A stretch of DNA of 64,000 nucleotides, taken from Candidatus Latescibacterota bacterium (GTDB lineage Bacteria; Latescibacterota; UBA2968; UBA8231). Positions 18,707 through 28,569 of the stretch are shown here, in pieces. Each line of letters begins with the position of its first letter. Positions within the stretch are counted from its first letter, which is position 1. Under the pieces are notes generated by a model. The model was not told the DNA's origin and did not search any database. It saw only the letters and a list, made by a program, of their open reading frames with translations. The stretch lies in assembly GCA_965215195.1 (NCBI GenBank), contig CBDCDC010000001.1, positions 608,001-672,000 on the forward strand, read 5' to 3'. A program made the translations under genes and the position numbers.

Positions 18707-21088
18707 CTATTTGCGCTCGGCGATTTTGCAGACCCAGATACTGATCTCGTAGAGCAGGAGCAGGGGTAGGGCCATGAGGAGCTGGGAGACCGGGTCGGGC
18801 GGCGTGAAGATCGCGCCGAGGACGAAGATGCCGATGATGGCATAGCGGCGGATGTGGCGCATCCGCGCGGCCGTCAGCACCCCGACTTTGGCCAAAAAGA
18901 GCGACAGCACGGGCATCTCAAAGACAATGCCAAAGCCAGCGATCAGCCGCAGGACAAAGCCGATGTACTCGTCGGCCGCCCATTGCGAGGTCATGTCGGG
19001 CGGCTCTAACGCGAGGAAAAAGCGCAGCCCGAGCGGGAGGACGATGTAATAAGCGAGCAGCGCGCCGACCGAGAAGCAGAGGACGCTCAGCGAGATAATG
19101 GGCAGCATGAGCCGTTTCTCGCGCTGCAAAAGCCCCGGGGCCACAAAGCACCAAGCTTGGTAGAAGATGGCCGGCAGCGCGAGCAGCAACCCGCCGACAA
19201 AGGCGATTTGCAGGCTGATGAAGAAGTAGGTCATGGGTCGCAGGGCTTGCAGCCGGCGCGCCGGGGGTAACTCGGCGCCTGGCGCATTCGGCTCCGGCAC
19301 AGCGTCGGGCTGGCCCAACCACTCGCTCACCAGCTTTTTGACCGCCCGCACCGCGCCCGAGGATTGCTGGCCCTCCAAGCTGAGGACGGCTTCTTCGTAT
19401 GGCCGGGTCAAGATCTGCACGATTGAGTCGGAGAGGGCGAAGCAGATCACCGCACCCACGGCGAGCGCGCCTAGGGCCTTGAGAATGCGCCAGCGAAGTT
19501 CTTCGAGGTGGTCGAGAAAGGGCATGTTGTCTGCTACGCGGTCCGTTACCGCTGGCTCGCGGGCGGGTCGCGGCTTGCGGAAACGGGCGGCGAGGGCGGC
19601 GAGGGCGATCAGCAGGCAGCCATAGGCGAAGAAGTCGCCGTGCCGAGTGTAGAAGGTCGCGGGCTGGCCGACCGGCACGGTGGCGACCGCGACCGCGGGC
19701 GTGAAGAGATCGGTCGCCTCGTAGGTGCGGCCAAACGGGTCGATGAACAGGGAGATGCCGGTGGTGGCAGCGCGAGCGATGGCCGTGCGGTTTTCAACGG
19801 CGCGCATGGCGTTGATGAGCGCGTGTTGGTAGGGCCCCGCGCTGCGGCCAAACCACGAGTCATTGGTGATGTTGACCAGTACGTGCGCCCCGGCCGCCAC
19901 GTGCTGGCGGACCAGATCGGGAAAAATGGACTCAAAGCAGATGAGCACGGCAAAGGGATGCCGGGGATGGGCAAAAACGGCGTGCTCGGTGCCGCGCGCG
20001 AATTCGGCCGGGCCGAGGTCGCCGGTCAGGCGGGTCCAGTCGATGTCGCGCAGCAGGGGGATGGCGTCTCGGTAGGGAGTCCGCTCGCCAAAGGGCACTA
20101 AGTGCATCTTGGCGTACGAGGGTAGGGCTGCGGCCCCGGGCTGGACGAAGAAGGCCGCGTTGTAGTTCGCGTGTGGTGCGCCGGTCAGCAAGGGAATGTC
20201 CAGTTCCTCGACGAGCGCTTGGACGCGGCCTCGGCAACCGGACCGGCGCACAGGATCGCACGGCAGGGCGGTTTCGGGCCAGACCAGCAGCTCGGGATCG
20301 CGCTTGGCCGCTTGGCGCGAGAGCGCGGCGAGGGCTGTGAAACTGCGCTCCAGCCCGTTGGGGCCCCACTTGTCGGCGTACGTGGTGTTCGGCTGTATCA
20401 GGCCGATGCGCAGGCCCTCGGCCGGGACGGCTGACGCCAGCGCACTCTGAGCGTGGAGCCAAGGCAAGAGATAGCCCAAGGCAACGCCCGCGAGGAAGAC
20501 GCGCCGTTCGACGAGCGCCAAGTAGAACAGGGCGTTGAGGCCGACGACCCAGCAGGAGACGCCAAAGACGCCGGTCCAAGTGGCGTACTGGATGAAGTGG
20601 GGCAGGGCTGCTTGGCTGTGCCCCAGCAAGAGCCAGGGAAACCCCAACTCCCCGAGGGAGAGCAGGTATTCCTGCCCGGTCCACAACAAAGGCAGCAGGG
20701 CGAGCGCCTTCGCGCCCCACCGCGCGGCGAGCGCGCTGAACAGCCCGATACAGAGGCCGGTAAAAAGGCCCAGATAAGCGGCCATCAGCCCGGTGCCCCC
20801 GACGACAGCGACCCCCCCACCTTGGGTATAGGCCACCCAGTACAGGGACAGCAGGTTCCAGACTAAGCCGCTGACCCAACCCGCGGCAAAGCCGGCTTTG
20901 AAGCCGCGGCTGTGCAGCGCGAGCAGTAAAGGCACCAGCGCACAATGGGCCCAGAGTGGATGATAGAGAAAGGCGAGGGGGTGAGCAGGGTGGCTGGGAA
21001 AGGCCAGCGCGAGCAAGGCCCCGCTCAGTGCGGCGAGCAGTAGGCGGTAAAGCGGGGTTGGGGCCAGAACAAAGCGCGGATTAGACAT
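18707..21088 (-). CDS. lnt-tatC: Fusion of apolipoprotein N-acyltransferase (Lnt) and twin-arginine translocase TatC
   Basis: Lnt motifs WPETA, YAKMHLVPFGE, ICFES, TNDSWFG, RAVENR continue in frame into TatC motifs MPFLDHLEELRWR, FVAPGL, FEMP, TPPDPVSQ. Confidence 0.9.
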   Translation of the reverse strand: MSNPRFVLAPTPLYRLLLAALSGALLALAFPSHPAHPLAFLYHPLWAHCALVPLLLALHSRGFKAGFAAGWVSGLVWNLLSLYWVAYTQGGGVAVVGGTGLMAAYLGLFTGLCIGLFSALAARWGAKALALLPLLWTGQEYLLSLGELGFPWLLLGHSQAALPHFIQYATWTGVFGVSCWVVGLNALFYLALVERRVFLAGVALGYLLPWLHAQSALASAVPAEGLRIGLIQPNTTYADKWGPNGLERSFTALAALSRQAAKRDPELLVWPETALPCDPVRRSGCRGRVQALVEELDIPLLTGAPHANYNAAFFVQPGAAALPSYAKMHLVPFGERTPYRDAIPLLRDIDWTRLTGDLGPAEFARGTEHAVFAHPRHPFAVLICFESIFPDLVRQHVAAGAHVLVNITNDSWFGRSAGPYQHALINAMRAVENRTAIARAATTGISLFIDPFGRTYEATDLFTPAVAVATVPVGQPATFYTRHGDFFAYGCLLIALAALAARFRKPRPAREPAVTDRVADNMPFLDHLEELRWRILKALGALAVGAVICFALSDSIVQILTRPYEEAVLSLEGQQSSGAVRAVKKLVSEWLGQPDAVPEPNAPGAELPPARRLQALRPMTYFFISLQIAFVGGLLLALPAIFYQAWCFVAPGLLQREKRLMLPIISLSVLCFSVGALLAYYIVLPLGLRFFLALEPPDMTSQWAADEYIGFVLRLIAGFGIVFEMPVLSLFLAKVGVLTAARMRHIRRYAIIGIFVLGAIFTPPDPVSQLLMALPLLLLYEISIWVCKIAERK

Positions 21089-26008: not shown

Positions 26009-26383
26009 GTGGCTGTAACAATTATGCGTACGGTGCGGCCTAGTCCGCAATGGCAAGACAGCTTGATCCGGCTAGAGAGCGGCCAGCGGGTCGTGGTGGA
26101 TGCCGAGGAAACTTGGTCGCCGGACATGCGCAACCAAATCGCTTGGTGCGGTGCCGATGGCGTGTACAACCTGCCCGCAGACTCGGGGTACTTACTGCCG
26201 GGGGCCAACGTCGGGGCACTCGTGGCCCGCATTGGCACCGGGCCGATCTTTGCCGTGGGCAGCCGCTGCGACTTTGTCGCCGACCGCGCCGGCATCCTGC
26301 ACTTGGCCATGAACGAAAACCCGGACTTCAACAACCAAGCCGGCAAAATCGTCGCCCAAATCATCGTCTTTAGCCAACCATGA
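26009..26383 (+). CDS. Small beta-sandwich protein, LecA/PA-IL lectin-like
   Basis: WQDS.I.L..G, GALVARIG, G.LHLAMNE..FNN..G pattern. Confidence 0.5.
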   Translation: MAVTIMRTVRPSPQWQDSLIRLESGQRVVVDAEETWSPDMRNQIAWCGADGVYNLPADSGYLLPGANVGALVARIGTGPIFAVGSRCDFVADRAGILHLAMNENPDFNNQAGKIVAQIIVFSQP

Positions 26384-27417
26384 GCCTCGCCGGCCGCACG
26401 GCGACCGCAGCCTATGTGCGCGCTGGGCATCCGCCCGTCCGCGCGCTCGCTCCGCTCGCCGCAGGAGTCTGGCGCATCGACGACGCAGCCGGTCGCAAGG
26501 TCGTGGTTAAACATCAGCTCTTCGGGCGGCTAACGCAGGGTACGGCTTTCGACCTGTTGGAGGTTGAGCGCGAAGTGCTCGGGTTCCTGCGTGCAGACGG
26601 ATGTCCGGTGCCCGCGGTCCTCGGCTTAGACCCAGACGCCCACTGCATCTTCTTGCAATGGGTCGGCGATCGCACCCTCGACGACGCCATTCAGGACGGA
26701 GACCAAGCCGCGACCACGCAGGCCATACGCGGGCTGTGCGCCATTGAGCGAACGTGCGCCCAACGCGCCGATCAGCTAGGGCCGAGGGTGGTGCCGAGCG
26801 CCAATCGCACGGCCCTCGCCGCTGCCTGGGACGAGGCCGGGGAGCGGGCATACGCTGGAATTGAGCAGTTGTGCAGCCGCCTCCAGCGGCCCTTGGACGC
26901 CGGAATGCGACCGCTGCTCGAAGCCATGCACGCCTATCTGGCGGCGCGACCGGCCGCGTTGGGCAGCGTAGATTACAACGCACGCAACGCAGTCGTTGAG
27001 CCGGGGGGAACGCGCATCTACTTCCTCGAATTTGCCAAAATTGGTTGGGACTGGACGGAACGGCGCTTGACGCAGTATACTACTAGCATGGGCAGCGGCC
27101 GGCAGGACGGGCGCATGTGCTCGCTGCTGGACGCGCCGGCCGCGCGTTTGTACGCCGAGGAGTCCGGGCGCAGCGATGGCGCACGGGCGCTCGATTATCA
27201 CCGAGTCTTTTTTCTTCTCAACAGCGCGGCCTTGTTGTGCGCGGCCCTCGATGGCGAGCCGCACGCGCTGGCCCTGCGTCAACGCTGGAAAAGGCCCTAT
27301 GCGCGGCTGCGGCAATGCGCGGCCATGCTGGCCGAGGGCCTGAGCACGGACCCAAGCGCGGCCGAGTTCAGAGGCCGGTTGCAATTTTGTACATCACCAC
27401 GCGGAGGTACCCTATGA
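26380..27417 (+). CDS. Aminoglycoside-phosphotransferase-like kinase with non-canonical motifs
   Basis: VVVK, EREVL..L...GCPVPAV, SVDYNARN (for HGDxxxxN), FLEFAKIG (for IDF). Confidence 0.65.
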   Translation: MSLAGRTATAAYVRAGHPPVRALAPLAAGVWRIDDAAGRKVVVKHQLFGRLTQGTAFDLLEVEREVLGFLRADGCPVPAVLGLDPDAHCIFLQWVGDRTLDDAIQDGDQAATTQAIRGLCAIERTCAQRADQLGPRVVPSANRTALAAAWDEAGERAYAGIEQLCSRLQRPLDAGMRPLLEAMHAYLAARPAALGSVDYNARNAVVEPGGTRIYFLEFAKIGWDWTERRLTQYTTSMGSGRQDGRMCSLLDAPAARLYAEESGRSDGARALDYHRVFFLLNSAALLCAALDGEPHALALRQRWKRPYARLRQCAAMLAEGLSTDPSAAEFRGRLQFCTSPRGGTL

Positions 27418-27680
27418 GCGAGTGGAACACGCTTGACTTCAAGCCCCGGGCCCGGGGTATGATCATCGGCGATATTCCCTGGCTGGCGCGCATAGCCGAC
27501 AAGGCGCGGGCGCACCAGCAAGAGCGCATCGGCGACTACGTATTTCCCTGACCGGCCGACATGCGCTTCCTGGAGGAAGTGGAGCTGACAGCCGCAGCAT
27601 TTGCAGAGATGGTGGCCGCATCCGCAGATGACGATGCACTGATCGAAAAGATGAAAGCGCACTTGGCCGGAAAGCACTAG
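27414..27680 (+). CDS. DUF5069-like protein with in-frame UGA at codon 46; putative selenoprotein (88 aa)
   Basis: GGAGG RBS and ATGA overlap; WLARIADKARA...IGDYVFP-TGA-PADMRFLEEV...DDDALI...-TAG, ending 1 nt before the next ATG. Confidence 0.75.
27564..27581 (+). promoter_or_regulatory. Candidate bacterial SECIS hairpin
   Basis: Stem CGCUUCC/GGAAGUG with loop UGGA starting 19 nt after the UGA at 27549-27551. Confidence 0.55.
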
Positions 27681-27681
27681 C

Positions 27682-28569
27682 ATGAGCACCCCAGCGCAAA
27701 CAGCGCGCAGACCAAGGCGGAGAGTGCGGGAGCTGGAGGTGGAGGTCGTCCACGTGCGCCGCGACACCCCAGACACCACCACGCTCTTTATGTCCACTGG
27801 CGACGAGCCGATCGAATACGAAGCCGGCCACTTCTGCACCATTGATCCCCATCAGTTCGGCGAGTTGGAGCACTTCACCGCCTATTTAGAAGATCAAAAG
27901 GGGCAGCGGGAAAAGCCGCGGGCCTATTCCATGGCTTCTGCACCGCACGAGCAGGACCTTGCCATCACCATCAAAGAAGAGCGCTACGAGAGCGGCCAGA
28001 CCCCGTACCCGCCGCTGCTGTCGCCGCTCTTGACGTACTACATCCAAGAGGGCCGGCGGCTGGTCATCAGCGGTTTTACCGGGGCGTACACCTTTCCCGC
28101 CGATGTCTGCGAGCGCACCGAGCACATTGTCCACGTGTGCGCTGGCAGCGGCATCGTGCCCAACAGGAGCCTGATCAAGGAGAGCCTGCACCGCGGCGAC
28201 CCGCTCAGGCACACCTTGCTGTTTAGCAACAAGACGCGCAGCGACATCATTTACTTTGAGGAATTCGAGGTGCTGCGGGCGCAGTATCCCGACCGGCTCA
28301 ACGTGATCCACTGCATCACCCGCGAAGACCCAACTGGCATTCGCGGCGCCCGCAACGGGCGCATCTCCGGGGCACTCTTGCGCGAAGTCGCACCCGATCC
28401 CTCCAAGGTGATGGCCTATAGCTGCGGCCCGGGCATCACGCCCTACGAGCGCCGGGCGGCCCGGGCCAAGGGCGAGGTCCCGGAGCCGCGCTTCGTCGAA
28501 AACATGGTCGCACTCTTGCGCACACACGGGTTGGACAAAAATCAGATCCGGCAGGAAAGCTGGGGGTGA
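27682..28569 (+). CDS. Ferredoxin-NADP reductase-like FAD/NAD(P)-binding oxidoreductase
   Basis: RAYSMAS, CAGSGIVP, YSCGP, C-terminal ESWG. Confidence 0.88.
   Translation: MSTPAQTARRPRRRVRELEVEVVHVRRDTPDTTTLFMSTGDEPIEYEAGHFCTIDPHQFGELEHFTAYLEDQKGQREKPRAYSMASAPHEQDLAITIKEERYESGQTPYPPLLSPLLTYYIQEGRRLVISGFTGAYTFPADVCERTEHIVHVCAGSGIVPNRSLIKESLHRGDPLRHTLLFSNKTRSDIIYFEEFEVLRAQYPDRLNVIHCITREDPTGIRGARNGRISGALLREVAPDPSKVMAYSCGPGITPYERRAARAKGEVPEPRFVENMVALLRTHGLDKNQIRQESWG

Follow-up and report, generated by a model that had tools for sequence, protein, structure and literature searches.

The 64,000-nucleotide stretch of Candidatus Latescibacterota DNA analysed here (hereafter, the window) carries, at 27414..27680 on the forward strand, what we regard with high confidence as one gene for an 88-residue DUF5069 selenoprotein, whose in-frame UGA is decoded as selenocysteine (Sec) via a SECIS hairpin. 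The mechanism is ordinary bacterial Sec insertion, and the novelty lies in the protein family, which is widespread in Latescibacterota-type and Poribacteria-type genomes. In the proposed mechanism, the UGA at codon 46 would not be taken as a stop during translation. A hairpin 12 nt downstream would instead act as a bacterial SECIS element bound by SelB together with GTP and Sec-tRNA(Sec), and SelB would deliver selenocysteine to the ribosome at the UGA. The predicted product would be a small four-helix domain whose only Sec, in the motif Y-x-F-P-U-P-A-D, lies where helix 2 starts, at its N-terminal end. In the window's genus, a flavoprotein reductase encoded 1 nt downstream may donate electrons to the selenoprotein.

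The open reading frame begins with an ATG at 27414, runs through an in-frame TGA at 27549–27551 (codon 46) and continues for 42 sense codons to a TAG at 27678–27680, so that read-through of the TGA as U gives an 88-residue product (88 codons plus the TAG). The ATG shares bases with the stop codon of the gene before it, a TGA (ATGA, 27414–27417), and the next gene starts 1 nt after the TAG. Apart from the ATG overlap, this layout had been described in an initial annotation made from the sequence, and every element of it is present. The same annotation had assigned the product to DUF5069, which is borne out by a match to the Pfam family DUF5069 (PF16798) with an E-value of 2.6e-12 and 47.5 bits, relative to a gathering cut-off of 27; a search of the raw DNA against PF16798 gave 45 bits. 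The match places residues 11–84 on profile positions 4–77 of 133, and the window protein thus lacks the C-terminal third of the full-length domain. This short form is also seen in the ~89-aa Cys homologues of the window protein. A search of the window protein against NCBIfam, including the selenoprotein models cited in the table of PMC13188914, returned no family at E ≤ 0.01.

The residue encoded by the UGA pairs with Cys in homologous proteins. A search of a collection of 5.8 billion proteins gave 47 matches, mostly of ~89 residues and annotated either as DUF5069 or as hypothetical, and 17 of the 47 were aligned. The TGA column is Cys in 16 of these 17 full-length homologues and Trp in the 17th (P0045), most likely a TGA that was translated as Trp by a gene-calling pipeline; by sequence, P0045 belongs to the type for which Poribacteria-labelled genomes have TGA. 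Across the homologues the motif reads Y-x-[YF]-P-[U/C]-P-x-D, followed by F-L, and the window protein reads Y-x-F-P-U-P-A-D. The DUF5069 protein of known structure, PDB 3omd, likewise has Cys at the Sec position (hmmsearch alignment, E 3.1e-14). The initial annotation had placed a Cys at codon 46 based on a DUF5069 motif, and the alignments with the homologues and with 3omd both confirm this placement; it had also named a Trp or unconserved column as grounds for doubt, and the column is neither.

Nor is the TGA unique to the window assembly, a further doubt raised at the outset. An orthologue (E ≤ 1e-12), 44–99% identical to the window protein, was found in 119 of the 168 genomes of the phylum, all 119 of which belong to four families of one class. 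Exactly one in-frame TGA is present in 104 of these 119 genomes, and the remaining 15 are without a stop. When the loci of 45 relatives were read, 42 showed TGA and three showed TGC at the same codon, with the frame intact to a later stop. A scan of one genome per species yielded 207 relatives, and among the best 80 of these, 77 fitted the motif pattern (the others being L101, L111 and L116), with TGA in 65, TGC in eight and TGT in four; many of these 80 records are from the same genomes as the phylum set, and the counts overlap. By record title, the gene-bearing genomes fall under Candidatus Latescibacterota, under Poribacteria and under bins with other labels, Gemmatimonadota among them. In RNA libraries of three studies there are contigs 90–95% identical to the window that span the gene, including the UGA. 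Since such libraries can contain DNA, and since the differences listed are only part of the total, we do not count these contigs as proof of transcription.

To examine how the Sec and Cys forms are related, a tree was built from 87 distinct proteins after masking the Sec/Cys column. On this tree the Cys state needs six changes, and the well-supported branches alone force at least two. The Poribacteria-labelled Sec forms (L125–L141) appear as one well-supported clade among Latescibacterota-type sequences, at an unresolved fork; gene transfer between the Poribacteria and Latescibacterota-type phyla is one possible explanation, the tree being built on only 88 columns. Three loci (L064, L075 and L083) come from bins titled Gemmatimonadetes or Alphaproteobacteria, with the gene and its neighbours showing 89–93% protein identity to the window's Latescibacterota-type genus, and the taxonomic labels of these bins may be wrong.

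A hairpin lies directly 3′ of the UGA, at 27564..27581 on the forward strand, comprising a 7-bp stem (CGCUUCC/GGAAGUG) and the apical loop UGGA (27571–27574). The hairpin starts 12 nt downstream of the UGA, and the distance from the UGA to the loop is 19 nt, in agreement with the stem length, loop sequence and distance given in the initial annotation. The bacterial SECIS (bSECIS) model, as outlined in the Fig. 2 legend of PMC13188914, specifies a loop of 3–9 nt on an upper stem of 4–16 bp, a G in the first two loop positions, 16–37 nt from the UGA to the loop and a minimum free energy (MFE) of − 7.5 kcal/mol or lower. The window hairpin falls within all four constraints as outlined there, with a 4-nt loop on a 7-bp stem, a G at loop position 2 that is followed by another G, a distance of 19 nt and an energy of − 8.0 kcal/mol. 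Folded alone, the hairpin has a z-score of − 3.31, and 0 of 200 shuffles folded as well. In wider contexts of 46–72 nt the fold energy is ordinary (z − 0.31 and z − 1.21). Fold energy in the wider context is thus insufficient by itself, and it is the comparative data that establish the hairpin.

Among 38 distinct Sec-form sequences, 93.1% of the pair cells are standard pairs, and the six inner pairs are formed in all 38. Neither this paired fraction nor the covariation score was reached by any of 500 shuffles or by any slid register. At pair 18/31, 26 sequences have C-G and the other 12 have G-C, and the pooled set shows A-U, G-U, G-C or U-A at pair 17/32 and C-G or A-U at pair 16/33. These pair changes alter the encoded amino acids on both sides (R/H/K/M/L and V/L/H/A), which means that the pairing is kept at the RNA level. 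The compensatory changes separate a few deep lineages and hence amount to few independent events. A possible lower helix, in which CGGC (27553–27556) pairs with GCCG (27591–27594), may enclose the upper hairpin (27553..27594, forward strand). Its support is weaker: 88.2% of its cells are paired and two of its pairs changed on both sides, and pair 6/45 is unpaired in 11 of the 38 sequences. An Rfam search over 27350–27800 at E ≤ 10 found no matching family, giving two chance-level matches unrelated to SECIS.

A tight contrast separates the Sec forms from the Cys forms. Counting contiguous pairs outward from the loop in 72 distinct Sec sequences, seven are found in 48, six in 21, five in two and zero in one; this last sequence (L121) is without the closing pair only. 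At least 5 bp are thus formed in 71 of the 72 Sec forms, whereas all 14 distinct Cys-form sequences have 0–4 contiguous pairs. The twelve bases TTCCTGGAGGAA are present in 65 of the 72 Sec forms vs. one of the 14 Cys forms, and the third-position entropy of the four stem codons is 0.00–0.17 bits in Sec forms vs. 0.59–1.20 bits in Cys forms. This contrast offers a clean natural example of a SECIS element that constrains the codons it overlaps, and even the amino acids (F-L-E-E).

The machinery for Sec insertion is present in the window genome: selA (472 bits), selB, selC as one tRNA-SeC with anticodon TCA, and selD were all found, answering the question raised by the initial annotation as to whether these genes occur there. 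The selD gene (L007, G000:C2:2617821-2621744) itself contains an in-frame TGA where one is expected (...ACGG-U-ASK), so that selenophosphate synthetase is also a selenoprotein in this genome. The hairpin after the UGA of selD shows no obvious sequence likeness to the DUF5069 hairpin, a comparison that is uninformative since bacterial SECIS elements differ between genes. A selB match above the TIGR00475 cut-off occurs in 128 of the phylum's 168 genomes, and 100 of the 104 TGA-form genomes have one. No selB was found at E ≤ 1e-60 in the remaining four, namely G024, G100 and G121, which are 75–84% complete, and G142, which is 98% complete. Of the 15 Cys-form genomes, selB is absent from three, and these belong to two genera that are wholly without selB, which fits a replacement of Sec by Cys upon loss of the machinery.

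If the TGA were instead a true stop, the gene would encode a 45-residue peptide, and the downstream 42 codons would be either untranslated or a separate small gene starting from an ATG at 27561. A 39-aa ORF with such an ATG is present at 27561–27680, and public gene callers do end the protein at the TGA, as in 12 of the best 150 cluster representatives matched by the family profile. However, this ATG is specific to the window genome, with AAG or CAG at the same position in relatives, and the P-A-D codons that separate the TGA from the ATG show in-frame conservation. The downstream part also aligns with the C-terminal half of 3omd and of Cys homologues that are single chains, and it varies in a codon-periodic manner. 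Based on 77 distinct Sec-form sequences, the entropies at codon positions 1/2/3 are 0.82/0.72/1.42 bits for codons + 11 to + 35 after the TGA and 0.53/0.37/1.29 bits upstream of it, showing that the sequence after the TGA is protein-coding and under purifying selection. We therefore consider termination at codon 46 very improbable. A similarly small probability attaches to read-through of the UGA without Sec, either by near-cognate insertion of Trp or Cys or by a general reassignment of TGA, a reading in keeping with two public protein records (P0045 and P0049) that have Trp at the site. TGA is nevertheless an ordinary stop in this genome, as it terminates 813 of the 1755 ORFs of at least 400 aa in addition to the gene directly upstream. 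TGG was found at the Sec codon in none of the 122 homologue loci read, and the two records with Trp fit TGA-bearing sequences of the Poribacteria type and the f2 type. Moreover, only sequences with TGA at this codon retain the hairpin that fits the SECIS model, and the co-occurrence of selB with the TGA form noted above likewise argues against insertion of an amino acid other than Sec.

A pseudogene or an assembly error is the least probable reading of all, with nothing in its favour beyond the stop codon itself. The same TGA recurs in the 104 genomes described above, over the full 44–99% range of identity and with an intact frame, and an independent DNA run contains the stretch at 99% identity or more, with no change at the TGA codon among the differences listed. 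Decoding of the UGA as selenocysteine, as the initial annotation had proposed, is thus the reading that the machinery, the Cys column, the spread of the TGA, the fit to the SECIS model and the covariation together support, all of these being lines of evidence drawn from sequence.

The same truncated and Trp-containing records bear on how the family appears in public data. When 1.84 billion cluster representatives were searched with a profile, 594 matched at E ≤ 0.001, and among the best 150 of these, the 12 that stop at the TGA end exactly at profile position 45, with sequences ending ...Y-[IV]-Y-P. Trp at the Sec site is seen in the top profile match and in P0045. In all, P0045, P0049, P0048, P0063 and ten further representatives are either cut right before the Sec codon or have Trp at the site, as though a genetic code in which TGA means Trp had been applied. 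Public gene catalogues thus systematically mis-call this DUF5069 selenoprotein gene, either by stopping before the TGA or by placing Trp there.

Compared with bacterial genes that have intragenic SECIS elements, i.e., those of the fdhF/selD type, the window gene is alike in that the in-frame UGA pairs with a Cys of homologues, in that a hairpin located just 3′ of the UGA has a G within the first two positions of its loop and a spacing within 16–37 nt, and in that the selA, selB, selC and selD genes which such genes need are all present in the genome. The difference lies in the family. PMC13188914 (2026) presents its Table 1 as the most comprehensive inventory, which covers 119 families and subfamilies of selenoproteins from prokaryotes, and unlike the listed families of the fdhF/selD type, DUF5069 (PF16798) is not among the 119 in that table and has no NCBIfam model. 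No mention of "DUF5069" or "PF16798" was found in the literature searched, and no such family is mentioned in the passages of the deep-Sep and BSepDB papers that the comparison covered. The statement in the initial annotation that DUF5069 is not among the commonly listed selenoprotein families agrees with the literature searched and with Table 1 of the 2026 inventory. Also unlike the listed selenoproteins, the window protein has a single Sec with neither a UxxC nor a CxxU motif, and its fold is not thioredoxin-like.

Two other comparisons are relevant. The window protein matches Pfam DUF5069 and PDB 3omd, an uncharacterised protein of 145 aa from Leptospirillum rubarum, in both sequence and fold; it differs from them in being short (88 residues) and in having Sec where 3omd has Cys. 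A "hypothetical protein GOS_A" was described in the 2008 ocean-metagenome selenoproteome (PMC2398784), with two Sec and 155 Cys members. As described there, GOS_A resembles short-form DUF5069 in being a predicted selenoprotein family with no domain recognised at that time and with many Cys homologues. This comparison is by description only and provides no positive evidence that the two are the same family, and GOS_A is not in the 2026 table. Judged by sequence comparison, and with GOS_A compared by description only, short-form DUF5069 is an unlisted selenoprotein family of which the window gene is the founding member. It adds a well-supported family to the prokaryotic selenoprotein catalogue, from candidate phyla that are barely represented there.

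An AF2 model built on the alignment, with a mean pLDDT of 88.7, contains four helices (24–35, 47–55, 60–68 and 73–87), placing Sec46 where helix 2 starts, at its N-terminal end. In such a position the helix dipole favours a reactive thiolate or selenolate, and Sec almost always marks a catalytic residue. Position 46 is therefore the place to probe in DUF5069, and this likely active residue, in the loop before helix 2, provides a first functional handle on a domain family that has a solved structure. The fold was matched only by PDB 3omd (Foldseek TM 0.75; VIA-align Z 11.5, rmsd 2.4 over 82 residues), and the other rows of the fold search, at Z ≤ 3.5 and mostly TetR-like helical proteins, were treated as non-informative. 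A search of the ESM Atlas using a natural Cys homologue returned only DUF5069 clusters.

Besides the Sec/Cys position, the invariant residues include several Lys/Arg (K10, R12, R14, R26 and K30), D29, Y42 and D49. The alignment of window-type DUF5069 proteins shows neither a further conserved Cys nor a UxxC or CxxU motif. As Cys forms exist, Sec46 most likely replaces a nucleophilic or redox-active Cys, and our best guess is that it would act as a nucleophile with one selenol, in a reaction of either redox or group-transfer type. The suggestion in the initial annotation of a redox- or metal-active site at this residue is likewise a putative assignment. The window genome also contains a 437-aa ORF (L011–L013, G000:C1:824487-825740, minus strand) made up of three tandem full-length DUF5069 domains without stops, and similar ORFs of 430–480 aa occur in most relatives. 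Only one of the three domains of this paralogue has a Cys near the Sec-equivalent position, showing that Cys is not universal in DUF5069.

The selenoprotein gene of the window follows two conserved genes on the forward strand, a 124-aa gene (26009..26383), which is the first of a conserved three-gene block, and a 345-aa gene (26380..27417). The former has no Pfam family and is found by tblastn at 68–100% identity upstream in the same loci, and the latter has no Pfam or NCBIfam match, its likeness to kinases (APH) coming from language-model features only. These two genes always precede the DUF5069 gene in the window's own family, whether the form is Sec or Cys. On the other side, also on the forward strand, is a gene for a ferredoxin-NADP-reductase (FNR)-type flavoprotein (27682..28569; Pfam NAD_binding_1, E 3.4e-14), which matches FNR-type reductases of NCBIfam weakly, in every case below cut-off. 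This flavoprotein gene adjoins the DUF5069 gene in the whole genus and in two Cys-form clades, and in these two clades the flavoprotein start and the DUF5069 stop share 4 nt in eight of the ten loci read. This adjacency and coupling make the flavoprotein a candidate reductant. In the other three families and in the Poribacteria-labelled records, all outside the window's own family, no common neighbour was found, and the gene has unrelated housekeeping genes around it (ABC transporter, glycyl-tRNA synthetase, UPF0182, prephenate dehydratase). Since the neighbours differ in this way, the context gives no general functional clue, and the suggestion that the flavoprotein reductase may be the electron donor in the window's genus is one that draws on part of the tree only.

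Taken further, a more speculative proposal can be made, which we consider unlikely. Short-form DUF5069 could be a new type of selenoenzyme with a non-thioredoxin four-helix fold, in which the single Sec at a helix N-terminus, in a protein with invariant Lys/Arg residues at other positions, would attack an oxyanion or a disulfide-like substrate and would then be recycled by the translationally coupled FNR-type flavoprotein and NAD(P)H. If so, the pair would constitute a previously undescribed two-component redox system of Latescibacterota-type bacteria.

Elsewhere in the window, on the minus strand at 18707–21088, we note a single 793-aa ORF that combines the domains of apolipoprotein N-acyltransferase (LNT_N and CN_hydrolase) with a complete TatC domain, as an unusual fusion or else through the in-frame joining of two genes.
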